A stretch of DNA of 64,000 nucleotides from Candidatus Doudnabacteria bacterium (lineage in GTDB: Bacteria > Patescibacteriota > Doudnabacteria > UBA920). The translations under genes and the position numbers were made by a program. The notes under the pieces are model-generated. The model ran no database searches. It saw nothing but the letters and a program-made list of their open reading frames with translations, and was not told where the DNA came from. The stretch lies in assembly GCA_963837465.1 (NCBI GenBank), contig CAWINB010000004.1:202853-266852 (forward strand), in the 5' to 3' direction. Below are positions 2,205 through 48,279 of the stretch, one piece after another (position 1 is the first letter of the stretch; every line of letters starts with the position of its first letter).

Positions 2205-2209
2205 TATTC

Positions 2210-9114: not shown

Positions 9115-9834
9115 TTATCCGGACTCTGCGATAGCGCGTTGTTTCACCTGTTCATCGCTGACTATATTTCCATCCTTTAAACGGATAATGCGCTTGGCGT
9201 GGTTGGCGGTGTCCTGTTCATGAGTTACCAAAATAATCGTGCGCCCGCCGTCATTTAATTTTTGTAAAATTTCCATTACGGTGTTACCGCTTTTGCTGTC
9301 CAAATTGCCCGTAGGCTCGTCGGCAAAAATTACCGCCGGGTCGCAGACCAAAGCCCGCGCTATGGCCACGCGCTGTTTTTCCCCGCCGGAAATCTGGTTG
9401 GTATAAAAATCCAGGCGGTGGCCCAAACCGACATCGGTTAAAGCTTTTTTGGCCAGAGCGTCCTGGTCCTTTTTTTTGCTGTAAAGCAAAGGCAGTTTGA
9501 CGTTATCCAAAACCGAAGTCCTGGACAATAAATTAAAAGATTGGAAGACAAAACCGATTTCTTCGTTTCGCAGACCGGCCAGATATTCATCCGGAAAAAT
9601 ATTGGTGTTCTGGCCCTTAAAAGCGTACAAACCCGAAGTCGGGCGGTCCAGAAAACTTAAGATGTGCATAAGCGTGGATTTGCCGCTGCCGGACGGACCC
9701 ATAATGGCCACAAACTCCCCTTTATCTATGGTAAAGCTGACGCCGTGCAAAACCGGAGTCACCACGCCTTCGTTGACGTAATTCTTTTTTAAATTTTCAA
9801 CGCGAATGAGATCCATAAACGAATTATGAAGCAT
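9115..9834 (-). CDS. ABC transporter ATP-binding protein (MacB/LolD-type nucleotide-binding domain)
   Basis: 239 aa ORF with Walker [13 protein letters not shown] signature [15 protein letters not shown], Walker [13 protein letters not shown] and an H-loop. Confidence 0.9.
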
Positions 9835-14182: not shown

Positions 14183-14258
14183 GGGACGGTAGCTCAGCTG
14201 GTAGAGCAGCGGCCTTTTAAGCCGTTTGTCCCGGGTTCGACCCCCGGCCGTCCCACCA
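14183..14258 (+). tRNA. tRNA-Lys(TTT), copy 1, CCA encoded
   Basis: Cloverleaf with acceptor GGGACGG/CCGTCCC, anticodon stem GCGGC/GCCGT, loop CTTTTAA, T-arm CCGGG-TTCGACC-CCCGG. Confidence 0.9.
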
Positions 14259-26148: not shown

Positions 26149-26224
26149 GGGTCGGTAGCTCAGCTGGTAGAGCAGCGGCCTTTTAAGCCGTTTGTCGAGG
26201 GTTCGACCCCCTCCCGACCCACCA
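26149..26224 (+). tRNA. tRNA-Lys(TTT), copy 2 (different acceptor and T stems from copy 1)
   Basis: Cloverleaf with acceptor GGGTCGG/CCGACCC and T-arm GAGGG-TTCGACC-CCCTC. Positions 8-47 are identical to copy 1. Confidence 0.9.
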
Positions 26225-27665
26225 TATTGAACTTCTTGGAATCTGCAACGAGTTTAAACTCATTTTTCCAATTGGGGATTAGTGTTTCTCCATTCCAAGA
26301 AAAGTTTTCCAACATAGACTTCACCAAACGCCTTTTCCCTTCGGGAGAGGCTTTTTGGTAAGAGAAATAAGGATTTCTTAAAAGTTTTCCAAGTAGCACC
26401 ATTTGGTCTAAAATCTTTTCATCCGCAGTATCCAAAGCAACCCGCCTTTGCCTAAGCACTAATGATTGGTTAACAAACCTGGCCTTTAGCGAATTGTAAG
26501 TGTCTTCCTCAATTTTACCCTCAATTAGCCTCATTGCCAAGGCCTCAGTTTGTTGCCTTATTCTGACCTCGTCCATCTGAATTTTCTTTAGTTCGTCATC
26601 CTTGCAAAAGTTCATATCAGTCCGAAAACTCTTGACGGCTTCAATATATTTCTGCCCCTCTTGCTCGCTGAACTGGATTTCTTTTAACCGTTTTAAAAAC
26701 TGTTTTTCAATGACGGCTTCCCCAATATTTTTAAAGCCGCAGTTTTTATTTCGGCAATTGTAATATTTATATTTTTTCTTTGCCGAAACACAGCGTAGTT
26801 TACCTTTGCACAAAGGGCAGAATACTAAATTTTGAAAAACATAAATAAAAGTTTTGCTATGCTTGTAGCCTCTGCCACTTAAAACTACCTGCACTTGATC
26901 GTAAAGGTCTTTGGTGACAATGGGGGTATGCTTGCCCTCAATCGGTTCCTTGCGATAGCGAAAGAAGCCGTAGTAAAACGGATTGCGTAATATGTGAGCC
27001 AGTTTATTTTTACTTAACTTACAGCCTTTTTTAGTAAGTAAGCCCATTTCAGTTAAAATATCGGTTAACTGCACTAGCGAATAATTGCCTGTAGCGTACA
27101 TTTCAAAAGCTCTTTTTATAAACGGTGCTTTCACTGGATCTGGTTCTTTAAAAGCTTTCTTGCCCATGTTGACATAGCCTATCGGAGCAGGTAATGGAGT
27201 CATCCCTAAATTTAATAATCCGCTTATGCCTTTGTTGACTTCCTGCTTTAGGTTGGCAACGTAAGACTTGGCAAAACCAAATTGGATAAATAATATGCCC
27301 TTGTTGGGAGTTGAACTGGAAATTCCGTCAGCTACAAAATGCAGATCAAAACCAGCGTTCATCATATCTTCTAAAATTATCATATCCTGAAAATTCCTGG
27401 AGGCTCGGTCAACTTTATTAAAAATAATGCCTTTAACTTTATAATGTTTAGCTAATGCTATCATTTCGTGAAATTCATGGCGATCAATTTTTGAAGCACT
27501 TTCAATCTCCCTGAAAACTTTGAAAATTGGCAGTGGCGGATGATGATGTTCCGCATAAAATTGGTTTTGCCGTGTTTGTTCGTCTAAAGACGCTCCATCC
27601 GATTGCATTTGGCTGGAGACCCTGACATAGGAAATATAGGAATTTTGGTAGTCAATTGCTTTCAT
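26160..27665 (-). CDS. Large serine recombinase (resolvase catalytic domain, recombinase domain, zinc ribbon and coiled coil)
   Basis: Catalytic domain YISYVRVSSQMQ...KVDRASRN with the Ser nucleophile. The recombinase domain and zinc ribbon CPLCKGKLRCV...YYNCRNKNCGF follow, then a coiled coil. The last ~16 codons are encoded antisense to tRNA-Lys copy 2. Confidence 0.85.
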   Translation of the reverse strand: MKAIDYQNSYISYVRVSSQMQSDGASLDEQTRQNQFYAEHHHPPLPIFKVFREIESASKIDRHEFHEMIALAKHYKVKGIIFNKVDRASRNFQDMIILEDMMNAGFDLHFVADGISSSTPNKGILFIQFGFAKSYVANLKQEVNKGISGLLNLGMTPLPAPIGYVNMGKKAFKEPDPVKAPFIKRAFEMYATGNYSLVQLTDILTEMGLLTKKGCKLSKNKLAHILRNPFYYGFFRYRKEPIEGKHTPIVTKDLYDQVQVVLSGRGYKHSKTFIYVFQNLVFCPLCKGKLRCVSAKKKYKYYNCRNKNCGFKNIGEAVIEKQFLKRLKEIQFSEQEGQKYIEAVKSFRTDMNFCKDDELKKIQMDEVRIRQQTEALAMRLIEGKIEEDTYNSLKARFVNQSLVLRQRRVALDTADEKILDQMVLLGKLLRNPYFSYQKASPEGKRRLVKSMLENFSWNGETLIPNWKNEFKLVADSKKFNMVGREGVEPSTNGLKGRCSTS

Positions 27666-28429
27666 AATATCTTTGAATAGGCTCCGCTGTAAGTTTGATT
27701 TTTATAGGTTATAAATCCCTTATACATCTTATTGCTTAAAATTTTGCGTATTGATGAGGGATGCCAAAGACTGACTCCTCGCTTGGTCGGTATGTTATTT
27801 TGGTTAAGATGCTTGGCAATACGGGCAACGCTCATTTTTTGATAGCGCTTGAGGTAATAAATTTTTTTGACTACTTCCGCTTCTTTTTTATTTATAGTAA
27901 GTTGTCCGTCTTTGCTGTTATAGCCATAAATAAGCCCTCCGTGCCAGTTGCCTTTGGCAACGGATTGGTCACGGCCTGTCTTCATGCGAATGGTGATAAG
28001 ACTTCTTTCAAACTCGGAAAAAATTCCGATCATTTGCCTAAAGGCTTTGCGGAACGGATCATTATCCGATAAATTAGGCTCTAAAACTGAAACAATATTC
28101 TTTTTTAATTCGGCAAATTTTTTAATTAAAAGTTCCTGTAAAACCAAATCCCTGGCAAGCCTTGTCAGGCTGTAAATTAGTACTGTATCCACATCATCAT
28201 TGGTTTCCAAAAACTTCATTAGTTTTAGTAAGGCTGGTCTGTCTTGCAGTTCTTTGCTTCCGCTAACTCCGTCATCCTTGAAGCAGTCAATAATTTCCAT
28301 ATCATGTTTTTTTGCATAATCAGTCAAGCTTTTGACTTGTAATTCTATATTGTCATTTTCGGCCTGTATCGCTGTGGAAACTCGGCAGTAAATTATGCAA
28401 CGGGTCATTTTGACCTCCTTAAAGCCCAA
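27662..28429 (-). CDS. Short serine recombinase (resolvase catalytic domain and recombinase domain, no zinc ribbon or coiled coil)
   Basis: Catalytic motif CIIYCRVSTAIQ...SLTRLARD is followed by a partial recombinase domain. It overlaps the downstream LSR by ATGA, indicating translational coupling. Confidence 0.75.
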   Translation of the reverse strand: MGFKEVKMTRCIIYCRVSTAIQAENDNIELQVKSLTDYAKKHDMEIIDCFKDDGVSGSKELQDRPALLKLMKFLETNDDVDTVLIYSLTRLARDLVLQELLIKKFAELKKNIVSVLEPNLSDNDPFRKAFRQMIGIFSEFERSLITIRMKTGRDQSVAKGNWHGGLIYGYNSKDGQLTINKKEAEVVKKIYYLKRYQKMSVARIAKHLNQNNIPTKRGVSLWHPSSIRKILSNKMYKGFITYKNQTYSGAYSKIL

Positions 28430-28599
28430 CTCACTTTCTTAAATTCATCTCTGGCAAACTTTATGCCTTTTAGGAGAGAAAAGGCTTGTCCAAAGTCTCC
28501 GCTCATAATGCACTGTAAGCGTTCCCTCTCCATAGCTTGGATTTTCTGGCCTGCTAACCGCAACCAGTTAATCCGATCTTCTCTTGAAGAGAATTTCAT
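28405..28599 (-). CDS. Small basic hypothetical protein upstream of the recombinase pair
   Basis: 64 aa ORF overlapping the start of the recombinase gene. It could be an RDF or regulator, but nothing supports that directly. Confidence 0.25.
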   Translation of the reverse strand: MKFSSREDRINWLRLAGQKIQAMERERLQCIMSGDFGQAFSLLKGIKFARDEFKKVSWALRRSK

Positions 28600-28909
28600 A
28601 TTATCTCCAACTAAAAAACCACCAGAGATTGAACCGTCGATTGTTGCTACACAACAACAGTTTTCTCTGATGGCTTATTAGTAATATACCAATAAAAATA
28701 AGACCGTTCAATACCTATTGTTGTGTAGCAATTTAATTTTATAACATTTCTATGAGGGTGTACAATCGTTTATTAACAATTGCGATAAAGTATCGCCCTG
28801 TAATAACAATATGCAAAAACTTGGATACTTTTATATTGGTTTTTAGTCATATAATATATAGACTGAGGACAGATGGTGTCTTTACCGTCCATGCTGTCCA
28901 AAGACATCT

Positions 28910-30520
28910 TTAGAACTTCACACCTTCTACGCTTTCCTGTCCAGCATCGTCGTCTGCGGTAACGTCTTGTTCGTCCCCGGCTTTGTTTTGATTGGCTAGG
29001 ACAGCAGAGACGGCATTGACGGCATTTTCGTCCGTCTTTATTAAGCTAATGGTCCTTCCACCTGATTTGTCTTTTTCTACCTTAATCCCAATTGCAGCAA
29101 GGTTTGTGACGACCATTTCAAGCCTACGCCAGAGCCAGTTTGAGGTTTGCGGGAAATATTTGTTTTTGGTGTTAAGGCCAAGGCGTTCGGCTTCCGCAGT
29201 AAGTTCCCGTAATAAATCAGTAGGACTCGCTGTGTATTCCACCTGATCCCGCATGATCTCAATTACCACCTGGGCCACTAGCGAATCTTCAATGGCTTGG
29301 TAATTTTGCATAGCTAGGTTGGCTTTTAAGGCATTTACGAATTCCTCGTCCTTATGGCCTAAGGCGTTGCTAATAGCACAACCCCAGCGGACAAAATCAG
29401 CCATGCGCAAGTTCTCAATATCTTTGGGTAAAACTGTTTTCTCAAATAACTCCAGTGATCTCTTGACTGCGTCAAATAGTGCGCCGACCAAATGAGGTTT
29501 TGCCTTTGTAAACTTTGCCAACAGTTGGGCTTCGTCTTGATAGACTTCAGGCCTTTCAAGTTCAATTATTAATGAACGTTCCAACAGGTTAGGCTTGCTC
29601 ACAACGAGGTTAATTCCATTCATCGCCACAAGTCTACGGAAGCTGTAAATAATGTCGTCATCATCGCTGAAAAGTTCGCGTTTTGACATCGCCTCACCCG
29701 TAACTACGCGGCATAACATATCGGAAAAATTTGACTGTATGATAGACAAATTATCCAGTGGTAAAAGGTAGTGATGACTGGCAAGTTGAACGAATTCTTT
29801 GCTATCTCCAGTCGCTGTTAGCGTTTCCATTATTGATGGGTCAATCAACCTGCGGAGCAGTTTGCATAATGTAGTTTTACGGGAACCCTGCGCTCCGTGG
29901 ATTACCAAGACTGGATGAGGAAAATCAGGCACTATTCCAGCAACCATCCAAACCAGTAGTAATAATTTTTGTCCAGAATCTTTTGGCGTAGGGATAAAAT
30001 TATAGACTTCTTCTAAACTGCCTCCCGATATCGGCTCATCCTGGGCTCTCTGGTGTGAAAACCGATAAAACAATATCGGGGACGGATCAATAATTTTCCA
30101 GCCCTCTTTGCCGATTTCTACTGCTCTTCCGTCGCCAAGGTCGTAATAGATTTTATCCTTTAAAGTCGCAATCCGCACTTGCAACTTTATTTCCTCTCCA
30201 TCATGGGTAGCATGACCCTCAAGCGTCCTTACTGCGGTCTCAATCACGGCCGGGGAAACTGCTTTTTTTAATTCTTTCCAACCCAGGAATGACAGCCATT
30301 TTTTGAATTCTTTTGACTTAAGTTTTAAAACTTTTTTGCCATTGCCATCTATGGCCAAAAGTCCATTTTTAAACTGGTCAAAAAATAATTTAGATTTGCT
30401 GTTTAAAACCAAATTCACCAATTTTTTTGCCTGACTTTCATCCTCATCTTTTTCGCCCTCAATATTTCTTTCAATCTGTTGCAAAAGTTCTTCATCTTTT
30501 GTGTCTTTATTATCTTGCAT
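28910..30520 (-). CDS. P-loop NTPase of the primase-associated helicase type (VirE/D5/P4-like)
   Basis: Walker A VIHGAQGSRKTT and Walker B-like LLPLDNL. The acidic N- and C-termini and the 536 aa size are typical of mobile-element primase-helicases. Confidence 0.55.
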   Translation of the reverse strand: MQDNKDTKDEELLQQIERNIEGEKDEDESQAKKLVNLVLNSKSKLFFDQFKNGLLAIDGNGKKVLKLKSKEFKKWLSFLGWKELKKAVSPAVIETAVRTLEGHATHDGEEIKLQVRIATLKDKIYYDLGDGRAVEIGKEGWKIIDPSPILFYRFSHQRAQDEPISGGSLEEVYNFIPTPKDSGQKLLLLVWMVAGIVPDFPHPVLVIHGAQGSRKTTLCKLLRRLIDPSIMETLTATGDSKEFVQLASHHYLLPLDNLSIIQSNFSDMLCRVVTGEAMSKRELFSDDDDIIYSFRRLVAMNGINLVVSKPNLLERSLIIELERPEVYQDEAQLLAKFTKAKPHLVGALFDAVKRSLELFEKTVLPKDIENLRMADFVRWGCAISNALGHKDEEFVNALKANLAMQNYQAIEDSLVAQVVIEIMRDQVEYTASPTDLLRELTAEAERLGLNTKNKYFPQTSNWLWRRLEMVVTNLAAIGIKVEKDKSGGRTISLIKTDENAVNAVSAVLANQNKAGDEQDVTADDDAGQESVEGVKF

Positions 30521-30676
30521 ATTTTTGCTCCTCCCTAATTAATTTTGCCTTTTTTAATTTAGCTAACTTAAGACCCTTTCTAACTGCCCGACTTAAATTT
30601 TGACGATACGTAAGCCTCATTGCTTCTAAAAAATGCTGGGCTATGCGTCGTTTAAAACTTTTATTACCTTCAATTC

Positions 30677-31372
30677 TCATATATTTGAATCTCCTGTCAG
30701 TTGCCCGATTGCTTCTTTAAAAGCGCAACCTGTTTGCAACATAATTAGTTTTATTACGTCTCCCTGCATCCCGCAACCGAAACACTTAAAAGTATTAGTG
30801 CTGGTATAAATGGTAAACGAAGGTGTTTTTTCTTGATGTAGCATGCAAAGACCTACTTTGGTTTTGCCGCTCCGCCTCAACTTTCCTCGGTAAAAATTTT
30901 CTATAGGGACTTGTTTAGCATAATTTATCTGCTCTTGGGTTAGCCGTCCCTTTAAGACCTTGCCTCTTTTAATCCACAATAACCCCATGACTCGGTAAAT
31001 CTGTTTTTTCGCTTCAATTATTTTTTGGACTTCGTACGACTTCAGCCCTTGCCGCAGAAACCAAAGGTCGTTGGAATTTTTGGCAATAAGTTTAAAGGTT
31101 TTGAGTTTTTTACGAATTTCCGTAGATATAATTTGCTTGACGTTTTCCCAATCCTTGATTTTTTGTACCAACAAAGCTTCGTCTACTTCAGGGAAAATTT
31201 TTAATAGTTCTATTTCCGTGTATCTTACTTGGTGAAAGCGGTAATATTCTTCTTCAAGTTTCAAAAGATAAAGTAGTTGCCTATGCTCGGCCTCATCTTT
31301 TAAATCTGCTTCATTTAATATTTTCATCTTTAGCTGATTTTTTACCTTTCTGCTTAGCGACCAGTTCTTCAT
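30677..31372 (-). CDS. DNA primase zinc-finger (zf-CHC2) domain protein
   Basis: The C-terminal CMLHQEKTPSFTIY...FKCFGCGMQGDVIKL matches the DnaG/P4 primase CHC2 finger (C..H..PS......F.CFGCG..GD.I.). Confidence 0.6.
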   Translation of the reverse strand: MKNWSLSRKVKNQLKMKILNEADLKDEAEHRQLLYLLKLEEEYYRFHQVRYTEIELLKIFPEVDEALLVQKIKDWENVKQIISTEIRKKLKTFKLIAKNSNDLWFLRQGLKSYEVQKIIEAKKQIYRVMGLLWIKRGKVLKGRLTQEQINYAKQVPIENFYRGKLRRSGKTKVGLCMLHQEKTPSFTIYTSTNTFKCFGCGMQGDVIKLIMLQTGCAFKEAIGQLTGDSNI

Positions 31373-31585
31373 AAATGAAAAGTATTGATCGGCAGTATTC
31401 TGCCAAGTTTGGAGAAAGCTGGTCGCTAAGATTTAATAATTTTTTTTCTGGATCCATGCATTAATTATAAAATTTTCCAGAAAAATATTTTATTTCAACT
31501 TGTTTACTGTACAAAATAAAAAACGGCTAACTTTAGCCGTTTAAAAAAATTTATTAACAATAACCAAAAGTAAACAAACGGTAAA

Positions 31586-32590
31586 CTAATCGTCTTGCGT
31601 AAATTTTATATCATACCTATCGTAGTTTAACCTATACCCCCCAGTAGGAACTTTTTCAATTAACTTATAATGCAAATTCAATTTTTCTTGAAAATGTCGG
31701 TTAATTTCATTTACCGCTGTAGTGACAACAGTATAGCGGGTCTTTAATATTGCTATTAATAAGGGACCTGTTAAAAATCCGTTCTCTAAAGATTTTACCA
31801 AGACCATACGTTTGCGACTAATCGGATACTTCAACTCCCCAAGATCTCCAATTCTCCAAATGCCTTTGTTTCCAGATATATAAATTTGCATGCCGGTATG
31901 ATAGTCTGCCGGTTTGGGAACTTTAACTTTTTCGTATGGATTTTTATTTTTAGACAATGGCTTTAATAGTTCAACTGAATATTCATAACAATGAAGCTTG
32001 GAAGAAATATCATAATCCAAAAATAGACGCAATGATACGTTTAAAATTTTTATAAAGCCGTCATCGCTTATAGCCTGTATTGCTTCGCTAAGTGACACTG
32101 CCTGGTAATCATCTTGAGCGACTTTAAATAAATCCTTTTCAGTAAAGATAAACTTATCGCTATCCGCTCTTGACTTCGCTTCCAAAAGGGCTCGTGTCAA
32201 AATATTTTTCTGCTGTTCAATTTTATAAAATTTTTTGGGTATACAATTCTGGTTATTAAAAAACCAATTGGCAACCTCAAACACATTTTTCCAGTTAACG
32301 CCTTTCAAATGGTAAGCATATTCTACACGGTCATCCCCAGGCTCTCTTTCCACATCAACAACTCTAATTTGGTAGCTTTTAAATAAGCCCCACATATTAA
32401 ACCTCTCCACGCAGTTTTTTAAATCATTATCAACATCATCAATTATCATTTCCCCATCAGTTGCCCCGAATTGATAATTTTTTATAATCCCATTGAGCAG
32501 TTTAATTTCTGCCTCCGTTGGGTTCTGCATTAGGTCAGTTAGATGAATCATGGTTGTCACTCGGTTAAAACCGGATTTTTTAAAATTCAC
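31586..32590 (-). CDS. Hypothetical protein, 334 aa
   Basis: AT-rich ORF. No motif recognised. Confidence 0.35.
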   Translation of the reverse strand: MNFKKSGFNRVTTMIHLTDLMQNPTEAEIKLLNGIIKNYQFGATDGEMIIDDVDNDLKNCVERFNMWGLFKSYQIRVVDVEREPGDDRVEYAYHLKGVNWKNVFEVANWFFNNQNCIPKKFYKIEQQKNILTRALLEAKSRADSDKFIFTEKDLFKVAQDDYQAVSLSEAIQAISDDGFIKILNVSLRLFLDYDISSKLHCYEYSVELLKPLSKNKNPYEKVKVPKPADYHTGMQIYISGNKGIWRIGDLGELKYPISRKRMVLVKSLENGFLTGPLLIAILKTRYTVVTTAVNEINRHFQEKLNLHYKLIEKVPTGGYRLNYDRYDIKFTQDD

Positions 32591-32901
32591 AATGTCTATA
32601 CAGGGAACGTTTTTTATCGTTTTGTTCTATTATAGCCCTGCTTAATTAAGCTGGCAATTATTCACTTTAAGCTGATTTTGGTATATAATAGTAATGGAAA
32701 ATTTAACACCTAAACCGTAATTTTTACGGCATGGTGTGACAAAAAACGATTGAAGTTCAAGGGTGGTCATCCACCTTGCTTTACTTCAATCGTCATAGCC
32801 GAAAGGTTATGGGCAAATCCGAAAGGACGAGCCGAGCAAGCTCTGGATGGCCTTTTTGTTTGGCTAACCAACTTGCTCCTTAACAATTAAAACAATAAAA
32901 A

Positions 32902-33705
32902 ATGGATAAAAACATTACAAATGCTGTCTCCACAGAATCCAAAACTATTAATAAAGATGAAATGAAAGAGCTGCAAAAAAATAAAAAAATTGGTTTCATC
33001 GTTGGAATTATAGGGTTAGTTCTTTTGCCTGTTTATGGCCTTGGCATACTTCTGTTGCTACTAGCAGTATGGTTTTGGAATGGAAAGAAAATTCCAAAAA
33101 TTGTTAAATCTGTTACTGATTTTTCAAAGGATTCAAAACAAGAAAAAATTTTTTGGGATTTGATGAATGGAAAATATGGCCATACCGATCTAGGCGTAGG
33201 AGATATTATAATGTTGTATATTATCAGCTTAGTAAGAGAACTTCGTGTTGGAGATTTTCCCATCAAAAGTGCAACTGACCAAAATAGCTTTAATAAAAAT
33301 ATAATACAGGAAAGTAACGGGTCATTTAAAAATATTCAAATATTATGTGACGCTATGGAAGAAAAAAAGAAAATCAGTAAAGAACTCTTTAACAAGATTA
33401 CTTTTATTTCTACTGATGCTGAGGCACTTAAAAAATTTGAAGATTTTAAAAATGATATGATGAATCGTAATATTGAAGGAATTGACAAAGTTTTATCGTC
33501 TATTATTGATGCGGCAAAAGATCCAAAAAACGAAACTACGGTCTTGGAGGCCATGAATAAGTTTGGGGAGGACGGTATTTACGACCCACTTTATAAAAAA
33601 ATCCAAGAAAAAGAAACGGCAAAAAAATTAAAAGAAACTCTTAACGATTGGGAATACTTAAATATGCTAAGGTGGTGTATAGCAAGTTTTAAAGCAAGAA
33701 GCTAA
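32902..33705 (+). CDS. Membrane-anchored hypothetical protein
   Basis: 267 aa ORF with one N-terminal TM hairpin. A terminator hairpin follows at 33735..33770 (AAAAGCTCCCC...GGGGAGCTTTTTTG). Confidence 0.4.
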   Translation: MDKNITNAVSTESKTINKDEMKELQKNKKIGFIVGIIGLVLLPVYGLGILLLLLAVWFWNGKKIPKIVKSVTDFSKDSKQEKIFWDLMNGKYGHTDLGVGDIIMLYIISLVRELRVGDFPIKSATDQNSFNKNIIQESNGSFKNIQILCDAMEEKKKISKELFNKITFISTDAEALKKFEDFKNDMMNRNIEGIDKVLSSIIDAAKDPKNETTVLEAMNKFGEDGIYDPLYKKIQEKETAKKLKETLNDWEYLNMLRWCIASFKARS

Positions 33706-33846
33706 AAAATGAAAAACTTAAAAAAATAATTATTTTAAAAGCTCCCTTGTAATGGGGAGCTTTTTTGTATGAGGTTTTATACGGCCAACCTCGGATAAGT
33801 GTTCTGCCGGTCAATCTTCTTTCACAAAACTACACATCTGTTAGAG

Positions 33847-34239
33847 TTAGCCGATAGCCTCTTGTAATTTTCTTTCGTATTCCAAATCTACTTCTCCGTC
33901 AATATCTGGTTGTAATTCTTCTATCTGTTGTTCAGACCGTTCGGCTATAATTCCCTTATTTCTAGATCGGATTTCACGAAGTATGCCAGCCAATGGACCT
34001 TCCGTAGGAGTTGAAATTTCCATGCTGTCCTTAACCTTACCTAATGACCTGTCAAAAACTTCTTTTAATGCAGAAACCTCACCAGATTTAGCTTTCTCAA
34101 TCAGAGCTTCAACTAGCTCTTTTTTATTTGCTATAACCTGCTCTATCATATACTGCCGAAAGGTTATGGCTTCCAGCGTATGGCTAGCTAAACTGCCTTT
34201 TGGCCTGCCTGAGTTTTTGCGTTTTCCGCCGTGATTCAT
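33847..34239 (-). CDS. Hypothetical protein with a basic GGKRKNSGRPKG N-terminus
   Basis: 130 aa ORF. The GRPKG-type motif is reminiscent of phage small terminase or AT-hook-like DNA binders, but the assignment is weak. Confidence 0.3.
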   Translation of the reverse strand: MNHGGKRKNSGRPKGSLASHTLEAITFRQYMIEQVIANKKELVEALIEKAKSGEVSALKEVFDRSLGKVKDSMEISTPTEGPLAGILREIRSRNKGIIAERSEQQIEELQPDIDGEVDLEYERKLQEAIG

Positions 34240-34375
34240 AAAACTTGGTTAAATAATCAAATAACCAAGTTTATTATAATTGGTCTGCCAGTCCTGTAAA
34301 CGGATTAATTTTACTCTTTATAATAAGCCAATTTAGGTATATTATATATAAGTACACTTATTTTTATACTATAAA

Positions 34376-35314
34376 ATGCCTACTAAATTTAAACCAGGGG
34401 AGATAATTGATAAAGTATATATGGTTGAAGAAGCCTTTACAGGAGGTTCATTTGGGCATGCTTATAAAATAAAAAATGGTACAGGCTATGAAGTTATAAA
34501 AATCTGTGCAGAACCTGCTGGTACAACCGAAGCACTAAGATTTGTGCAAGAAAATGATTTTTTGTACAAACTATTTCCAAACCCCGCTATTATTGAGCCA
34601 CTAAGTAAAATCAGCCCATTAAATCCCGACAGTATTTATTATAGGATGAAGTTTGCTGATTATAATCTAGAAACTTATCTAGACGATTTTGAATCAAGCC
34701 TTGACCTAAATAGTAAATTGTCTATATTCAAAGGAATATGCGAGGGCTTAAAGCATGCACATGCAAATAAAATTTTGCATAGAGATTTGCATTGGGGGAA
34801 TATTTTAATTGACATGCTAAATAACATGCCAGTCCCTAAACTGACCGATTTTGGAAGATCTAAAGATCTAAAAGCTTTAATAGCATTATCATCAAATCCT
34901 GGAATTTGGGGAGAATTTGTTTGTCCACCAGAAATAAGGTTTAGGATTTGGGATAAACTTCCGACAAATTATATGGAGGGTGATATATACTCTTTGGGGA
35001 TTATATTTTATTATATATTAGGGGCTATGCCGAACTTCCCATTTATATTTCAAAATGAAATTATAAATTTTTTAAGAAATAAAAAGGTGACTCTTAAGAC
35101 AGTTAATGATGAAAGTATCCGTCATGGTTTGTATAAAGAATGGCTAGGAACCCTCACAGACCAAAAGATTAATAGTCATCTCAGCATTTTAATAAATGGA
35201 AGTGCGGTAATAAATGACAAAATTAATACCATTTTAAAAAAACTTAGCCATCCTAATTATGAGTTGCGGTATCGTTCGGTAGAGGATGTGTTAAAAGAAA
35301 TAGCAACACTATAA
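34376..35314 (+). CDS. Ser/Thr protein kinase-like protein
   Basis: Glycine loop GGSFGHAY, a VIKI lysine, catalytic loop HRDLHWGNILI and DFG motif LTDFGRS. Confidence 0.7.
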   Translation: MPTKFKPGEIIDKVYMVEEAFTGGSFGHAYKIKNGTGYEVIKICAEPAGTTEALRFVQENDFLYKLFPNPAIIEPLSKISPLNPDSIYYRMKFADYNLETYLDDFESSLDLNSKLSIFKGICEGLKHAHANKILHRDLHWGNILIDMLNNMPVPKLTDFGRSKDLKALIALSSNPGIWGEFVCPPEIRFRIWDKLPTNYMEGDIYSLGIIFYYILGAMPNFPFIFQNEIINFLRNKKVTLKTVNDESIRHGLYKEWLGTLTDQKINSHLSILINGSAVINDKINTILKKLSHPNYELRYRSVEDVLKEIATL

Positions 35315-37086
35315 TGGAAGACTTATTAATAATTCGTAATGCCACCAAAGCACAGCCAGCAGAAATTATTGCTGACCCTAATTTGGATTTGCCAGATTTT
35401 TATTTAGACCAAAAAAATCCGGAAAAAAATAAGTATTATGAAAAAGAAAAGTCCGAAGACTATTCCTTTTTAAGTAAAAATTTAAATAAAGAATTCCTAA
35501 AAAATCAATACAAAATAGCAAAATCAAATTTTGCAAGAAAAAAAAGCACCAGGAATGCTTACGCATTAGGTGAAATATTTTTATTAAAAAAAATCTTTTC
35601 CACTGCTAAAAATTATTACAAAATTAGCATAGAACTTGATAAGTCTTTTCTGCCTGCTTATGAAAAATTAGTATTGGTGTCCATAATTCTAAACGAAACA
35701 GATAGGGCAAATTACTATTATAAATTGCTTTTAGAAGTTTCCAATCATAGACCAGATCTAGTTCATAGTTACGCGCTTTTTAGAGTTGCAAGCTCTGCTG
35801 GAGATAAAACGACTTTGGATGAGACGCTCAAAGACTTAGATCAAATTTTAGCTCTGCAACCATTGGATATTGCCGCAATAAATAGTTATGGATTTATTTT
35901 ACTAAATTTTTACCAAAAACTTGATGAGGCACAACAGTATTTTGAGAAGGCTTTAGAAATAGATTCTACCTTTGTTCACTCAATGAATAATTTAGCGGTT
36001 TGTTATATTCATAAAAATGACTTAACAAAGGCTATATCACTACTTGAAAAAGCAATAAAAATCCATCCAAACTATGTGATGGCATATCAAAATTTAGCTG
36101 GCATATATTTTAGAACAAATAAATTAGCAGAAGTGTCCAAGATACTTAAGCAAGCAGTAAAAAATAATATTACCTTATCTGACGAAACCAAACATCTGTC
36201 TGGTTGGCTTTTAATTCTTACTCATAAATATGAGGAGGCAAAAAATTGGTACCTGAAAGAAATAATGGGAGAGCCAGGAAATAATCTTTTATATAACAAT
36301 TTAGGGTACGCATACCAACAACTCAAAGATTTAAACAAAGCAGAAGAATACTATAAACAGGCTGTTGATATAGCGAAAAGAAGAAAGGCAAAAAATTTAT
36401 TTGTTGATGACAGATCTCTTTTTGCCTTTTATAATCTTGGCCGACTTTTTCAATTTTTTGGTAAAGTTGACGAACTCCATAAAATTTCAAATGATATTCT
36501 TAATTGGAAGCCCGAAGATCCTTTTGGCCAATATTTGTATGGGAGCGCTTTAGTCATAGATGGTAAGCATGATGCCGCTAAAAAACAATTATTAAAGGTA
36601 GTTGAAAAATATCCGAAACTTCCAGAAACCTATCAAGACCTTTCTTACATATATGACTCTATAGATAAAGATTATAAAGCTTCTATTGATTTGTTGAATG
36701 ATGCCATAAAAATTGGAATTAACTTACCTATAATTTATAATAACTTGGCAATAGCCTATATAAATTTAGGAGACTTTAAAAATGCAGAGGACACGCTTAA
36801 TAAAATAACGGATGATTGTGAGCCTACAATAATTGCAACCCGGGGACTTTTAGCTTTTAGAAAAAATGATTCGGAGAAAGGTAATAAATATTACAAAAAA
36901 GCTGTCGATGAAATTAAACCGCAATTAAAAAATTTGGCGAATCAAATTTGGTTATATGAGCAAGCATTTTATTTCTTTCGTACTGGAAAGTTAGAAGAAG
37001 CAAAGATAAAACTCAAAGAATCAAAGAAAATGGGTAAATCATATATGACTAAGGATATAACCGAATTAGAAAATAAACTGACCTAA
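35314..37086 (+). CDS. TPR-repeat protein
   Basis: 590 aa ORF with multiple 34-aa TPR-like repeats (A..YY..AL..DP....A.NNLG..Y). Its start overlaps the kinase stop (ATAATGG). Confidence 0.7.
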   Translation: MEDLLIIRNATKAQPAEIIADPNLDLPDFYLDQKNPEKNKYYEKEKSEDYSFLSKNLNKEFLKNQYKIAKSNFARKKSTRNAYALGEIFLLKKIFSTAKNYYKISIELDKSFLPAYEKLVLVSIILNETDRANYYYKLLLEVSNHRPDLVHSYALFRVASSAGDKTTLDETLKDLDQILALQPLDIAAINSYGFILLNFYQKLDEAQQYFEKALEIDSTFVHSMNNLAVCYIHKNDLTKAISLLEKAIKIHPNYVMAYQNLAGIYFRTNKLAEVSKILKQAVKNNITLSDETKHLSGWLLILTHKYEEAKNWYLKEIMGEPGNNLLYNNLGYAYQQLKDLNKAEEYYKQAVDIAKRRKAKNLFVDDRSLFAFYNLGRLFQFFGKVDELHKISNDILNWKPEDPFGQYLYGSALVIDGKHDAAKKQLLKVVEKYPKLPETYQDLSYIYDSIDKDYKASIDLLNDAIKIGINLPIIYNNLAIAYINLGDFKNAEDTLNKITDDCEPTIIATRGLLAFRKNDSEKGNKYYKKAVDEIKPQLKNLANQIWLYEQAFYFFRTGKLEEAKIKLKESKKMGKSYMTKDITELENKLT

Positions 37087-37126
37087 ATCATATATTTTTG
37101 TTTAAATTAAAATATTTATTAACCGT

Positions 37127-37657
37127 ATGAAAATTTCCTCAATGATACTATTTCCACATAATCCTCATTCTAGTAAGCTAGATAGATTTATCAAAGTGAT
37201 ACTGTTAGTAGGGGTTTTAACCTTTTTTATCTTAATATATGAAAATATCATCGTACCTGCCCAGCAACGCCAGCCTTATTATGCCTTTTCTTTTCAAAAT
37301 AACTATGATACATTTCCGGAAAAAGAAATTTATTGTAATTTAAAGCCTCTATGCATGAACCCAGATCAAATTGTCATTTCTTATGACACTTATGCTGATA
37401 ATACAGCCGAAAAAAATTATGTATCACAGGCAATGATACAAAATGTTGATAACCAACAAATATTGAACCACTTAGAAAATGATGGGGCAATTAACGTAGC
37501 CCAACTAAAAGCTAAAGACATTAATGATTACCAAGACTACGTCAATCAAGCGATTACCCGAACTATTTTATATACAATTATTGCCTATTTTTTTGCTACG
37601 CAAATACTTTATAGAATTTTTTTATATATTGTTTATGGTAAGACGAAACAAGTTTAA
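37127..37657 (+). CDS. Membrane hypothetical protein (N- and C-terminal TM segments)
   Basis: 176 aa ORF with no recognised motif. Confidence 0.35.
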   Translation: MKISSMILFPHNPHSSKLDRFIKVILLVGVLTFFILIYENIIVPAQQRQPYYAFSFQNNYDTFPEKEIYCNLKPLCMNPDQIVISYDTYADNTAEKNYVSQAMIQNVDNQQILNHLENDGAINVAQLKAKDINDYQDYVNQAITRTILYTIIAYFFATQILYRIFLYIVYGKTKQV

Positions 37658-37666
37658 TTTAAAAAA

Positions 37667-37981
37667 ATGCGCAACATTAATAAGTCAGTTGCTATAATTA
37701 TACCTAAAAAGCCCTTTGCAAACTGGGCTAATCATCTGCCAGGTGTTGACACGGAACTTAGCTTTAACGAGCTTAAAAAATATGCTAAAGCTATTTTGCT
37801 AGAAAAATTTACAACTTCTAAAGAAGCCAAGGAAGTATTCAGTCAAACATGGAATGAGGTTTTTGAAGAGTATCTAACAAGCTGGTCTAACGACGTGGAT
37901 TATTGGCCAACAGGTAGAACCAAAGAATTATTTTACAAATGGTTTGATGTAGAATTTTATTCTAACGTTTTAGATCTATAG
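37667..37981 (+). CDS. Small hypothetical protein
   Basis: 104 aa ORF with no recognised motif. Confidence 0.3.
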   Translation: MRNINKSVAIIIPKKPFANWANHLPGVDTELSFNELKKYAKAILLEKFTTSKEAKEVFSQTWNEVFEEYLTSWSNDVDYWPTGRTKELFYKWFDVEFYSNVLDL

Positions 37982-38002
37982 AAAGATAAAAAATAAAAAT
38001 TT

Positions 38003-38578
38003 ATGGATTATAAGATATTCGTTAGTATAATTTCAGTCATCCTTGTTTTTGTAGGATACGGCCCGTACATTCGGGATATTTTTAAGCGAAAGACAACCCC
38101 ACATACTTTTACTTTTTTGGTTTGGGGTATTTCAAGTTCAATTACTTGGGCTTTACAAGTGATGGGGGGGGCTGGAGTGGGTGCGTGGATAACATTTGCG
38201 GTTTCTGCCGTGTGTATATTTATTTTTTTCCTGTGTCTAAAATATGGTGAAAAAAGTATCGCTATTTCAGACGTTGTATTTTTAATACTTGCCCTGTTTT
38301 CGCTTTTTCTTTGGCTTGTGGTAAAACAGCCAGTCTTGTCAGTAATACTTGTGGTTTTAACGGATATATTAGGTTTTGGGCCAACTATAAGAAAGTCTTG
38401 GAATAAACCTCATTCCGAAACATTATTTACTTGGTGGGTCGCGGCATTTAGGCACGCATTAGGTATTATTGCCTTACAAAAGTTTAATATTTTTACACTT
38501 CTTTATCCAGTAGCCTGGACGATAGCCAACTTAATTTTTTGTCTAATTTTGCTTATAAGACGTAAGCAAATTAAGTAA
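38003..38578 (+). CDS. Polytopic membrane protein (about 6 TM)
   Basis: 191 aa ORF made up almost entirely of hydrophobic helices. Confidence 0.45.
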   Translation: MDYKIFVSIISVILVFVGYGPYIRDIFKRKTTPHTFTFLVWGISSSITWALQVMGGAGVGAWITFAVSAVCIFIFFLCLKYGEKSIAISDVVFLILALFSLFLWLVVKQPVLSVILVVLTDILGFGPTIRKSWNKPHSETLFTWWVAAFRHALGIIALQKFNIFTLLYPVAWTIANLIFCLILLIRRKQIK

Positions 38579-38590
38579 ATTTGTCCTTTT

Positions 38591-38980
38591 ATGGAACGTG
38601 CAGAAACATTAGGCCTTTTGGCCTTTAAAAACTGGGTAGGAGATCGGGGCGAAATCCTTAATACTTCTAGGGATGGAGTTGGGTATGATTGCAAAGTAAA
38701 ATGGAAGGACACGGGCTTGGCCGAAACATACGAAATTAAAGGAACAGCAAAAGTATTGAAAATTCCCGATATGAGCGTCGTTGAATTTGATGAAAGCCAT
38801 AGATTAAAGGCCGATTTTCTTTTTGTGGCCGGAAACGTATTTGAAACTGGTAAAGAAGTGCTGTTTAAAATTCCAAGAGAAGCCTTAACTGAAGAAAATC
38901 TAAAACTGAAACAAACCTATCATATAAGGCTTTTCCAAAACCAAAAGAAAATGGGGAAATACCGCCTTACCAGTAATTAA
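38591..38980 (+). CDS. Stand-alone DUF3883 (NOV C-terminal, restriction-endonuclease-like) domain protein
   Basis: G.RGE...GVGYDCKV...ETYEIKGT matches the remembered DUF3883 signature G..GE...GyDi...yIEVKtT. Confidence 0.5.
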   Translation: MERAETLGLLAFKNWVGDRGEILNTSRDGVGYDCKVKWKDTGLAETYEIKGTAKVLKIPDMSVVEFDESHRLKADFLFVAGNVFETGKEVLFKIPREALTEENLKLKQTYHIRLFQNQKKMGKYRLTSN

Positions 38981-39260
38981 ATTGCTCTGATAAGGCAAAC
39001 CCGTCTGAAATAAAAAATTGACCTCAGATGAGGTCTTTGTGTAGAATGTATATAATATCGGCTTGGCTATTTAGATCATTCCTGACGTTAGCAGTGAACT
39101 CTGGGATAACCCTAATAAGGCCTGATAGATGTCCTTAACCAAACGAGCAAATAGTTTTCCAATTGGTTCTATATGCTCCACCAAAAAAAGCGCCGAGACT
39201 TTTTGGGCGCTTGTTAGTAAAAATAAAAAGTGGTATAATTAAGATAATTAAACTTATCTT

Positions 39261-39875
39261 ATGAGAAAAACATTATTACTTGCAGTTCCTTTAATTGCCT
39301 TGATGGCAGCTGGTTGTTCGTCAAATTCCAACAACAGCCCCCAGAGCAGCGCTTCGCAGTCACCAATTGCAAATTCTCCTAGCGTCCAACAACCATCGAC
39401 ATTGACGGCACCGTCAGCTGCCGAATCAGATTTTAAACAAGCCAGCGACCTAGCAGCACAGCAATGCAGTAATTTACAGCTGGTCGAATATTTCAAAAAT
39501 TTTAAACCAGCAGATAAGGGTAATACTGCCAGTGGTTATAAATTTATTTGCGACGATGGAAAATATGTCTCGGTTGATATAATGAGCACCGGAAACATGC
39601 AAACGAGAAAATTAACTAATCTTTACTATAAACCCATTACATTGGCAGATTGGAAAGTTAATTTAGATTCGGCAAAAAACATAGCTTTACAGAATGGTGG
39701 GAACGATTTTATTAGCAAAAATAGTGGAGCATTTTTGAATGGTGAAATTTTAACCAGCAGAACCGATGAAGGCTTTAAGTGGATTATAGATTTTGAGTCG
39801 CAAAATTATAATTCGGAATTGCAGATATTTATCGATCCGACGACTGGCGCAATACTAGGTCAGAAAACTTACTAA
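39261..39875 (+). CDS. Lipoprotein
   Basis: Signal peptide with a lipobox (LIALMAAGC|SSNSNNS). 204 aa. Confidence 0.6.
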   Translation: MRKTLLLAVPLIALMAAGCSSNSNNSPQSSASQSPIANSPSVQQPSTLTAPSAAESDFKQASDLAAQQCSNLQLVEYFKNFKPADKGNTASGYKFICDDGKYVSVDIMSTGNMQTRKLTNLYYKPITLADWKVNLDSAKNIALQNGGNDFISKNSGAFLNGEILTSRTDEGFKWIIDFESQNYNSELQIFIDPTTGAILGQKTY

Positions 39876-39983
39876 ATCGTATACCTTTAAAATTTCGGTC
39901 TGGGCAGGTTCTTTAAAAAATCGCACCAAACTTAAGCAAAGTTAAAATAATTCTCGCTTACAAATTGGTGGTTTGGCACATGT

Positions 39984-40012
39984 GCTGAGTTCGATCCCCG
40001 GCCGTCCCACCA
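39984..40012 (+). repeat. Partial tRNA-Lys 3' end (att-site remnant or direct repeat of tRNA-Lys copy 1)
   Basis: GCTGAGTTCGATCCCCGGCCGTCCCACCA. The 3' 24 nt match copy 1 with one mismatch. The 5' GCTGAGTTCGA part matches the attP-like core at 26073. Confidence 0.7.
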
Positions 40013-40044
40013 TAGTGTCCTTTTTCGCTTCTGCGACTAACCTG

Positions 40045-40152
40045 AATTCGTTTTTCCAGTTGACCTGTATAACCTTTTCGCTATTCCAGGTTAGGTTTTC
40101 AACCATAGATTTCACCAAACGCCTTTTCCCTTCGGGAGAGGCGTTTTGGTAT
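40045..40152 (+). repeat. Diverged ~105-bp direct repeat of 26255..26360 (LSR C-terminal coding remnant)
   Basis: CATAGATTTCACCAAACGCCTTTTCCCTTCGGGAGAGGCGTTTTGG aligns with CATAGACTTCACCAAACGCCTTTTCCCTTCGGGAGAGGCTTTTTGG. In both places the sequence lies directly 3' of a tRNA-Lys sequence. Confidence 0.7.
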
Positions 40153-44312: not shown

Positions 44313-44641
44313 TGCCTCGGTAGCTCATTGGTAGAGCGTTGCCCTATAAAAACAATCTTTGGGGCCATTCGCCGTAAGGCGGATTGAGAAAAACTGGGTG
44401 AACTCGGGGAAAACTTCATCTCATAAAAAAGATGAAATAATCCCGAGCCAAGTTCCGAAGGGCTTCGCCGGCTGGCGGAAGGTTTCGGAAAAGGTGTAGA
44501 GACTAATAGGTGAGTCCCAACAATAATCCTATACAAGCGCCCAGCCCCGGCCCTTTAATATAAAGAGCCGGGTGATGATATAGTCCAAATTAGCCTCGGA
44601 AGAGGCAAGCGTAGTCAGTTCGATTCTGACCCGAGGCACCA
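44313..44641 (+). tRNA. tRNA-Phe(GAA) interrupted by a 254-nt group I intron after U33
   Basis: The 5' exon 44313..44344 (GCCTCGGTAGCTCATTGGTAGAGCGTTGCCCT) and the 3' exon 44599..44641 (GAAGAGGCAAGCGTAGTCAGTTCGATTCTGACCCGAGGCACCA) join to a canonical cloverleaf with loop CTGAAGA. The intron carries the group I R element (GTAGAGACTAATAGG) and S element (GATATAGTCC). The IGS GGGGC can pair with the exon end GCCCU, with a U.G pair at the splice site. Omega-G is at 44598. Confidence 0.75.
44345..44598 (+). ncRNA. Group I self-splicing intron (no ORF)
   Basis: Conserved P7-flanking R and S elements and P1 pairing. 254 nt, too short for a homing endonuclease. Confidence 0.7.
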
Positions 44642-44702
44642 GATTTTACTAAGTTTTTTAGCGCGGACAGAGTTCCCCTAAAAAAAGCAACAATCCAAAC
44701 AA

Positions 44703-44776
44703 GCGGCCATGGTTCAATGGTAGAACTCCTCCTTGCCAAGGAGGGGATAGGGGTTCGATTCCCCTTGGCCGCTCCA
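44703..44776 (+). tRNA. tRNA-Gly(GCC), CCA encoded
   Basis: Cloverleaf with acceptor GCGGCCA/TGGCCGC, anticodon stem CTCCT/AGGAG, loop TGCCAAG, T-arm AGGGG-TTCGATT-CCCCT. Confidence 0.85.
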
Positions 44777-44930
44777 GTAGCAAACTTTCAGACATTTCAG
44801 ATTTTTTTGCACGGGCTTCGCAGAGCGAAGCCCATTGTGTCGGGGGGACGGAAACGATTTTTTGATTTTTTAAAACAAGGTGCGAGCCGAAGATTTTTTG
44901 TGCAGACGATTTTTTGGGGGGTAAGTCGGG
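44772..44930 (+). repeat. Perfect ~160-bp inverted repeat, copy A (partner 50672..50828)
   Basis: Copy A, from CTCCAGTAGCAAACTTTCAGACATTTCAG to GACGATTTTTTGGGG, is the exact reverse complement of copy B. It starts at the CTCCA 3' end of tRNA-Gly and encodes the penultimate ~50 aa of the LSR. Confidence 0.85.
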
Positions 44931-46329
44931 CGAAAGCGTTATTTCGCCGAGTTTTTCTGCGTCTTGTATCCACTCTTTGAGAGGTGCGAGCCAGATTGTC
45001 CGTTGTTGTTCAAGACGGGCTATTTGCTCCTCCAGCGACTTCTTATCGGACACAAGAACGTTCTTTTGTGTCCGATAGGTTTCCTGCTCAATGTCTTGGT
45101 CTAAATAGGCGTTAAGAAGTCGCTGGAGCTTGCGGTCAATCTCATCTGTCCTTGAACGCAAGTCTTGGACAACCACGGCCACGGAGCGGGCGGAGTCCTT
45201 GTCGTCCTTGTCCGCCATAGCGTTTAGCTGTTCCGCCCACTCTGGTGGCATTACAAAGGTTTTAAGGATAGTTGTAAGCTGGTTGTCCAGTTCCGTGTCC
45301 CTGACGGACAACTGCGAGCAATGGGTGTTTTTCTTAGTGCAACGATAGTATAGGTAATTATGGACATTGCCGTTTTTTTGGTGCTTGGTCTTGGTTTCGG
45401 CGGTTATGCTGCGGCCGCACTCGCCGCACTTGAGCAAACCACAAAACGGCTGGGGCTGGTTCTTGGGATTGTCGCGCTGGTGGCCGCGTTTTTCTAAAAC
45501 CTCCTGTACTTTATCCCAAAGCTGCTTGGTAATGATTGGCTCGTGTCGCCCTTGGTGCAACTCACCTGCGTATTGGAAAAATCCGTAATAAAAAGGGTCG
45601 TTTAAAATATATGTTATCCTGTCCCGTTTTAGGATTTTTCCGCTCTTGGCTACTATGCCCTTATCTTTTAAAAACAAAGAAATGGCCTCAAGGGTATTAC
45701 TACCTTGAGCGTATAGTTCAAACATCTGTTTAATGATTTTGGACTTCCTTTTGTCTATGACAATAGTTTTAGTCCGGCTGTCGTTAAGATAGCCGATAGG
45801 CGCACGGCTGGGATACTCGCCGCGCCGGACTTTTCTCTAAGCCCCCGTTTAGTGTTGTTGCTTAGGTCTAAAATAAACTGGTTAGCCATTCCAAACTCAA
45901 CGCTCATAAGCAGAACGTTATCAGTCGAGCGATAGCTCCGCTCATTGGTTTGGATATGCTGGATTATGCCGCGCTGTAAAAACCAGCTAATCTGCCCGCC
46001 GTCCACGGGGTTGCGGGCGAGCCTGTCCAGTTTCCAGCAGACAAGGCCTTGAGCTTCGCCTTTTTCAATCCGGCTCATCATCTCGGAAAACACCGGACGG
46101 CCTAAAGATTTAGCCGACTGTTTTTCCACAAACTCGCAAGCAATAGATAAGTCCTGCTCTTTTGCCAAAGCCCGCAACTCCGTGAGCTGGGCTTCTATGG
46201 ATAAAACCTGTTTATCCTCAACATCGGTGGACTTGCGGGCGTAGAGAAAATAGTTATCGTTTACCAAAATTGATTTTTTTGCTATCATATAATTGTAGTA
46301 AATTGTTATATATTGATACTAGCAAATAG

Positions 46330-46545
46330 TTGAAGAATATGCAAACAACCCCGAACATTGGGAATAATATAAAAAAATACAGGGGCAAGCTCGGCTTAAC
46401 ACAGGAAGATTTGGTAAAAAAATCAGGCGTAAAATACACCACCCTTTCTAAGATTGAAAGCGGAGCGTCAAAAAAACCGACAGTTCACATAATCGCTAAA
46501 ATCGCTAAAGCCCTCGGCGTTTCTATTGAAAATTTAATAAAATAA
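46330..46545 (+). CDS. XRE-family HTH regulator (possible controller of the R-M operon)
   Basis: 71 aa ORF with the HTH KKYRGKLGLTQEDLVKKSGVKYTTLSKIESG. It lies 5 nt upstream of mod. Confidence 0.7.
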   Translation: MKNMQTTPNIGNNIKKYRGKLGLTQEDLVKKSGVKYTTLSKIESGASKKPTVHIIAKIAKALGVSIENLIK

Positions 46546-46549
46546 ACTT

Positions 46550-48277: not shown

Positions 48278-48279
48278 TT

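Follow-up and report, generated by a model that had tools for sequence, protein, structure and literature searches.

A rare kinase–TPR gene pair on a tRNA-Lys island of a Doudnabacteria genome: a candidate two-gene anti-phage module

Results and discussion

Six co-directional genes on an AT-rich island

We analyzed a 64,000-nucleotide stretch of the genome of a Candidatus Doudnabacteria bacterium (assembly GCA_963837465.1, contig CAWINB010000004.1, positions 202,853 to 266,852), referred to here as the window, in which six genes follow one another at the distal end of a 13.8-kb island bounded by tRNA-Lys sequences (Table 1). The row starts with the genes of a Hanks-type Ser/Thr kinase and of a protein composed of tetratricopeptide repeats (TPR), which are the main subject of this work, and continues with genes for proteins of 176, 104, 191 and 129 amino acids (aa), the last of which is related to the NOV_C family (formerly DUF3883). 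An original prediction, made from the DNA letters, had described the row as one cargo set; the coordinates and the plus-strand orientation it gave for the six open reading frames (ORFs) agree throughout with the ORF list, and the overlap it noted between the stop of the kinase gene and the start of the TPR gene is present and measures one base (CTATAATGGAA). All genes are co-directional, with spacings of −1, 40, 9, 21 and 12 nt, and a consensus scan found no terminator-like site in the gaps between them. The GC content of the region is 30–38% and its GC content at third codon positions (GC3) is 25–35%, whereas the pyrD/F/E and prs genes alongside have 45–50% and 45–60%, respectively. The six-gene region is hence compositionally foreign and AT-rich.

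A Hanks-type kinase and a TPR protein encoded as a conserved pair

The 312-aa protein matches the Pfam family Pkinase (PF00069) with 71.7 bits (cut-off 31.7; E 8e-20) over model positions 9–252 of 263, and the solved structures nearest to it are those of bacterial and eukaryotic Ser/Thr kinases, including kinases of the PknB/Stk1 type. Aligning the window copy with its seven closest relatives (34–60% identity), we found residues G24/F26/G27, K42, E59, H135-R136-D137, N142, D158-F159-G160, P185-E186, D203 and R298 to be invariant. The Gly-rich loop, the VAIK Lys, the αC Glu, the HRD Asp, the catalytic-loop Asn, the DFG Asp, the APE Glu and the subdomain XI Arg are all kept. The protein is a Hanks-type kinase with an intact predicted catalytic site; the original prediction had made its kinase assignment dependent on the catalytic residues, and the canonical positions are invariant in the eight aligned sequences. 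Close relatives are few, about eight among 5.8 billion protein clusters. A scan of a genome collection with the kinase alignment returned only unrelated Planctomycetota kinases of <30% identity; its pattern, from the generic DFG region, missed the source genome and is uninformative as to distribution.

The 590-aa protein encoded next matches many TPR models of Pfam, including TPR-S at 40.9 bits. An exhaustive phmmer search with this single protein as query, run against 1.84 billion representatives (clusters at 50% identity), yielded about 55–60 full-length relatives of 554–603 aa that align in a single stretch, while the remaining strong matches are giant multi-repeat TPR proteins. Orthologues are colinear with the window protein from end to end, at 31–65% identity.

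In every locus with enough sequence, eight independent ones including the window (the others being L001/L002, L003, L005/L006, L007, L008, L105 and L106), the kinase gene is directly followed by a gene for a TPR protein of 576–590 aa. The two genes overlap by 1–11 nt in seven of the eight, the window counted, and are separated by a 3-nt gap in the eighth. Furthermore, the identities of kinase and TPR protein to the window pair drop in parallel (60/65, 42/41, 35/38, 31/38, 33/34 and 35/32%, respectively). The adjacency and overlap of the genes, the end-to-end alignment of the TPR proteins and these parallel identities indicate that the pair is co-inherited and probably translationally coupled. 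The coupling of kinase and TPR protein, which had been proposed for the window on the basis of one junction, thus extends to all eight loci as adjacency and to seven of them as overlap.

The pair recurs in differing mobile and defence-type neighbourhoods

The neighbours of the pair differ at each locus and are often defence genes. A large serine recombinase lies on one side of the L001/L002 pair, and a terminase and a ParB-methylase on the other. The pair is accompanied by a Hypoth_Ymh protein (PD-Lambda-3_B-like) and GIY-YIG at L003, by a HEPN-type pair and a fragment of the Shedu SduA nuclease domain (6.7e-28) at L005, by a HARE-HTH protein at L007, by an HD-domain protein at L008, by a Dam methylase and a Type II restriction enzyme (REase_II 1.4e-36) at L105, and by NurA, a HerA/mad8-like ATPase, an SMC-like ATPase and a Dam methylase at L106. 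The window island and L001 have recombinases with no more than 28% identity to each other, so the pair has moved between unrelated elements. We consider the kinase–TPR operon to be the one true functional unit of the island region, a rare two-gene module that travels among defence islands and mobile elements of unrelated kinds.

The gene order at L106 deserves a separate remark. Positions 135–9509 of this metagenomic locus hold co-directional genes for NurA, the HerA/mad8-like ATPase, the SMC-like protein (AAA_23), a 296-aa protein and the Dam methylase, with the kinase–TPR pair standing last. The neighbourhood is thus MADS-like, and the pair may be an embedded or accessory module within it.

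Both proteins resemble the two components of PDC-M71, a candidate class in the PADLOC database of defence systems; matches to PADLOC models are stated here by E-value and bits and not judged by the thresholds that PADLOC itself sets for score and coverage. Among the models of PADLOC-DB, PDC-M71B is the only one matched by the TPR protein (5e-21, 73 bits). The same model is matched by 53 of 53 members of the TPR family, with a best value of 3.4e-32, and the generic TPR models of PADLOC by at most 10 of the 53. PDC-M71A, in turn, is matched by all eight kinases, at 1.4e-13 (49 bits) for the window copy and at 5.6e-18 for the best.

A candidate anti-phage function of the pair

The conservation of the pair, its overlapping adjacency, the intact catalytic residues, the variable defence and mobile neighbourhoods and the homology to PDC-M71 lead us to regard it as a candidate anti-phage system of the abortive-infection type, to which we give a probability of about one half; we infer the complex, the sensing by the TPR protein, the targets and the phenotype of such a system. 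Both proteins would be made in a fixed ratio via translational coupling and would associate with each other, and the long TPR solenoid of this complex could serve as sensor and regulator or as a brake. The TPR protein might keep the kinase inactive, or it might recruit a phage protein. Upon infection, the active Hanks kinase would phosphorylate host or phage proteins, by which phage propagation would be blocked, probably at the cell's cost. The original prediction had already seen an antiphage or signalling flavour in this cargo, which is in line with the mobile and defence-type neighbourhoods and with the likeness to the PADLOC candidate. A more specific form of the proposal can be put forward only tentatively: the pair may represent a functional, as yet uncharacterised system of abortive infection, with a free-standing TPR solenoid that detects a phage protein and then sets a minimal Hanks kinase free. 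Integrative elements of Patescibacteria would carry this system as one of their exchangeable cargoes.

Several observations weigh against an anti-phage role. The Lys of the HRDLKxxN motif, typical of Ser/Thr-specific kinases, is replaced by His or Trp in this family (HRDL[H/W]xxN). The PADLOC models for mad6, MkoA, PD-T4-6 and Stk2 outscore PDC-M71A for the kinases, so that it is mostly the TPR partner that links the pair to PDC-M71; the higher scores with these four models would reflect generic kinase similarity. The match of the TPR protein to PDC-M71B is partial, its best stretch covering model positions 355–474 of 515. PDC-M71 itself is a candidate only, and the available part of the preprint describing it contains no experimental test (bioRxiv 10.1101/2024.01.29.577857); a literature search for PDC-M71 by name found no paper mentioning it in its main text. 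Moreover, most of the genomic contexts come from short contigs, and the enrichment in defence islands is anecdotal rather than statistical. Finally, two of the closest loci are situated on mobile elements, which fits a function in the service of the element too.

Such a function could be that of a host-takeover or counter-defence kinase, whose phosphorylation targets would be defence proteins or other proteins of the host, or that of a weapon against competing elements. It would agree with the position of the pair in the two closest loci, the window island and L001/L002, which are integrative or prophage-like elements carrying it beside an integrase, in the latter case between the serine recombinase and the terminase. 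Kinase and TPR protein also both match PHROG families (phrog_2361, 2.5e-23, and phrog_7590, 3e-24, respectively), and there is a precedent in the kinase of phage T7, which is reported to phosphorylate host defences broadly (PMC13645617). Yet tblastn found no relatives of kinase and TPR protein in 50,697 phage genomes or in PLSDB plasmids, and no close relatives turned up when IMG/VR contigs were scanned with the alignments of the two proteins. The pairs at L105, L106 and L005, furthermore, are surrounded by restriction-modification (R-M), HerA and Shedu-type genes, and phage genes are not visible at these loci. Defence genes borne by prophages beside the integrase are equally common. Altogether, we consider it unlikely that the pair serves the element.

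The pair could also be an ordinary phospho-signalling module that tunes host physiology and has no role against phages, similar to a split version of a kinase–TPR fusion such as mycobacterial PknG. Bacterial Hanks kinases with TPR domains are indeed common regulators, and the resemblance of the kinase to solved structures of housekeeping kinases of the PknB/Stk1 type points in the same direction. This is difficult to reconcile with the rare and patchy occurrence of the pair, seen in the small numbers of close kinase relatives and of TPR representatives (~60) given above, with its AT-rich foreign composition, and with a neighbourhood that differs from locus to locus and includes no conserved gene for a substrate or a phosphatase. 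A purely regulatory role is thus quite improbable to us, and an abortive-infection-type defence remains the function that we propose for the pair.

The four downstream genes as unrelated passengers

The short gaps between the six co-directional genes, the lack of a terminator-like site between them in the consensus scan and the hairpin after the last one could be taken to mean that all six act as one system, in which the kinase and the TPR protein would form a sensor or switch, and the membrane proteins and the DUF3883 nuclease would be the effectors. Synteny argues strongly against this, as it is lacking elsewhere: by tblastn, the 176-, 104-, 191- and 129-aa proteins are absent from all other kinase–TPR loci fetched. 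The original prediction of a six-gene cargo set, which itself named a lack of synteny in other genomes as refuting it, hence does not survive the comparison between loci. In addition, homologues of the NOV_C protein occur without kinase or TPR protein, and the gene of the 191-aa membrane protein is common in Parcubacteria, where it occurs in unrelated contexts. We consider a six-gene system highly improbable and read the row not as a conserved unit but as a patchwork of independently acquired cargo, in which the four downstream genes, encoding an orphan with two transmembrane (TM) segments, a 104-aa orphan, a PQ-loop-like protein and a solo NOV_C/DUF3883 protein, are unrelated passengers of the kinase–TPR pair.

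The 129-aa protein carries the motifs GDRGE, GYD and YEIKGT. We found five homologues (50–72% identity), which cover positions 1–87 of the 91 positions of the NOV_C/DUF3883 model (PF13020). Four of them pass the cut-off of 22.1 bits, with 27.9, 28.9, 33.9 and 33.8 bits, and the fifth falls 0.2 short of it (21.9 bits). The window protein itself has no Pfam match, even at E ≤ 10. Residues E5, D33, E48 and K50 are invariant in the family, and an AlphaFold2 (AF2) model of the window protein (predicted local distance difference test, pLDDT, 78) has an α-β-β-β core. These residues and the core are compatible with a PD-(D/E)xK fold, which we only infer because the model has no significant Foldseek match in PDB or BFVD; sequence and profile searches of PDB were empty as well. 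The DUF3883 assignment made in the original prediction therefore holds at the level of the family, four of whose five homologues pass PF13020, but not for the window copy taken by itself, for which neither a Pfam match nor a significant fold match was obtained. Judging from its sequence family, the protein is a solo NOV_C/DUF3883 mini-protein and probably a small PD-(D/E)xK nuclease or DNA-binding protein. Its homologues adjoin DpnII, M78/DUF4411, exonuclease VII or unrelated genes, and never a kinase or TPR gene.

For the 191-aa protein we obtained 484 homologues at E ≤ 0.01, with 57–90% identity among the 120 matches listed. Their names assign them to Nomura-, Taylor-, Moranii- and Uhrbacteria, sometimes with two copies per genome. 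With identities of up to 90% to the window protein, they make a Parcubacteria (Patescibacteria) genome the very probable source of the island. No Pfam family, PQ-loop/MtN3 included, is matched by the window protein at E ≤ 1, and none is precomputed for the 120 homologues listed. The AF2 model (pLDDT 91.6) consists of seven helices, one more than the six TM segments with which the protein had been labelled at first. Foldseek matches the model to cystinosin with a borderline E of 1e-3 (TMq 0.62, probability 1.00) and to the KDEL receptor with TMq 0.54–0.56, and the sequence shows two internal G-x-G-P-x-I-R/K-like motifs. Going by the model, the protein is likely a PQ-loop-like protein of transporter fold that is widespread in Parcubacteria. 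We also looked at the surroundings of its homologues (loci L180–L187). In one lineage they stand directly beside a CBASS operon (CD-NTase and Cap15) and near a serine recombinase; in another they are found among miscellaneous chromosomal genes.

The two remaining proteins are orphans. The 176-aa protein contains hydrophobic segments at residues 17–46 and 151–169, as expected from its earlier description as a membrane protein, and has no informative match in Pfam, NCBIfam, PHROGs, PADLOC or PDB. The only contigs found to carry the 104-aa protein belong to this element; its Pfam matches are below threshold (e.g. DUF2004 with 18.5 bits vs a cut-off of 27), a sequence search of PDB was empty, and no informative match exists in NCBIfam, PHROGs or PADLOC.

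The island and its surroundings

The composition of the region, the tRNA-Lys sequences at both ends, the repeats and the serine recombinases all bear out the original description of the surroundings as an AT-rich mobile element (Table 1). The two recombinase ORFs share 4 nt. The longer one, of 501 aa, is complete, and the one of 255 aa comprises Resolvase and a truncated Recombinase domain. The 3′ end of the 501-aa ORF runs over the tRNA-Lys gene and over the left copy of the second repeat. Besides the six-gene row, the island contains a CHC2 zinc-finger protein of primase type, several orphan genes and a lipoprotein gene. An independent Logan contig of 13,819 bp spans the window from ~26322 to 40140, from repeat to repeat. 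We rejected the idea that this contig is an excised circle: its ends lie inside the repeat pair bounding the island, and as an assembly break at the repeat suffices to explain it, it is no proof of excision.

Table 1. Positions in the window of the six genes and of the features that delimit and mobilise the island.
Feature	Position (nt)	Strand	Basis or remark
tRNA-Lys(UUU), complete, left island end	26149-26224	+	ARAGORN and Rfam
Two tandem serine recombinase genes (501 aa, full length; 255 aa)	26160-28429	-	Pfam Resolvase + Recombinase + Zn_ribbon_recom
Second repeat pair	26285-26360 and 40076-40151		87% identical
Hanks-type Ser/Thr kinase, 312 aa	34376-35314	+	ORF list; component A of the conserved module
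TPR solenoid protein, 590 aa	35314-37086	+	Component B of the conserved module
176-aa protein, two hydrophobic segments	37127-37657	+	Outside the conserved module
104-aa soluble protein	37667-37981	+	Outside the conserved module
191-aa seven-helix PQ-loop/SWEET-like membrane protein	38003-38578	+	Independent of the kinase–TPR pair
129-aa stand-alone NOV_C (formerly DUF3883) family protein	38591-38980	+	PD-(D/E)xK-like E...D...ExK signature
Terminator-like hairpin, 3′ of the last co-directional gene	39020-39035	+	Consensus scan only
Partial tRNA-Lys 3′ end, 32 nt, right island end	39981-40012	+	Direct-repeat analysis (D1 and D3 families)

A second tRNA-Lys(UUU) gene is located upstream at 14183–14258, and a tyrosine integrase gene (24563–25723) just before the tRNA-Lys gene of the left island end. 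The two complete tRNA-Lys copies differ by compensatory changes in their stems, and the partial copy at the right end agrees in its final 17 nt with the upstream tRNA-Lys gene and not with the one at 26149–26224, the 17 nt being identical. Together, the second tRNA-Lys gene, the tyrosine integrase and this 17-nt identity suggest that tandem or nested elements occupy one tRNA-Lys site.

Further features were noted within and beyond the island. A LOOT RNA motif (Rfam RF03000; 51.8 bits vs a gathering score of 46.4) lies inside the island at 32707–32833 (+), just upstream of a gene for a 267-aa membrane protein (32902–33705). To the right of the island, a group I intron (RF00028, 71.9 bits) at 44336–44608 is placed within a tRNA-like gene (~44314–44641, +) that ARAGORN missed; the acceptor halves gcctcgg ... 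ccgaggcacca flank the intron. A third mobile or defence patch (44658–50664) adjoins a tRNA-Gly gene (44703–44776). Its serine recombinase is split into two ORFs, 45755–46288 and 44658–45725, the latter of which runs over the tRNA-Gly gene, and it holds a Type III-like R-M pair composed of an N6_N4 methylase (46550–48277) and a ResIII helicase-nuclease (48280–50664).

Implications and comparison with known systems

If our proposal is correct, the pair would be a compact immune system of two proteins, a sensor plus a kinase, and would validate PDC-M71, a candidate class of PADLOC, and assign a function to it. It would also provide an experimentally tractable immune module from the ultra-small, episymbiotic Patescibacteria; the Parcubacteria, or candidate phyla radiation (CPR), are a group whose immunity is little studied. 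What is worth pursuing as a unit is the pair and not the row of six genes; the PQ-loop-like protein and the mini-protein of DUF3883 type are separate subjects.

As to these two passengers, the 129-aa family shares with NOV_C/DUF3883 (PF13020), the domain present in the helicase HmaA of Hma systems, a coverage of nearly the whole model; it also has the E/D/ExK signature, which is typical of folds resembling restriction endonucleases. HmaA is listed as a DUF3883 protein (PMC11232893). In HmaA, however, the domain is the C-terminal part of a large helicase/ATPase, whereas here it would stand alone in 129 aa. The model of the 191-aa protein superposes with the seven-helix fold of PQ-loop/SWEET transporters such as cystinosin and the KDEL receptor, from which the protein differs by a sequence identity of only ~9% and by the lack of a Pfam PQ-loop match.

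Among systems with a kinase, MAD6 of MADS gives the best PADLOC and NCBIfam kinase match for the window kinase. MAD6 is nevertheless a protein of ~612–659 aa and part of an eight-gene system, and no other MADS genes are present on the window island. An assignment of the window kinase as MAD6 equivalog (NCBIfam NF047741) was rejected, as it reaches 65 bits vs a cut-off of 460. Stk2 of Staphylococcus and PD-T4-6 of E. coli share with the pair a Hanks-type kinase as presumed effector. In these single-gene defences, kinase activity stops phage growth, probably at the expense of the cell. Their PADLOC models match the window kinase with E-values of 1e-15 to 4e-16, and down to 6e-37 within the family, a similarity that is generic to the kinase fold. 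Both are single genes with extra domains of their own, in contrast to the window kinase, a bare 312-aa catalytic domain with an apparently obligatory, separate TPR partner.

The closest counterpart is PDC-M71, which corresponds to cassette CAS_00219 (FAM_02024>>FAM_01393) with 31 occurrences (Payne et al., bioRxiv 10.1101/2024.01.29.577857, section 10, supplementary file 8) and was proposed via 'guilt by embedding', the surrounding loci being those of BREX, DISARM and Type I R-M. Both consist of two adjacent genes in the same A-then-B order, a Hanks-type kinase (model of 352 positions) followed by a TPR protein (515 positions). The matches of the window proteins are distant and partial, their sizes of 312 and 590 aa differ from those of the models, and the window pair lies on a serine-recombinase island instead of within a locus of one of these three kinds. 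No validated system includes the window pair as an established member. With the same architecture and gene order, and with a homologous TPR component, it is best described as a distant member of the unvalidated PDC-M71 kind.

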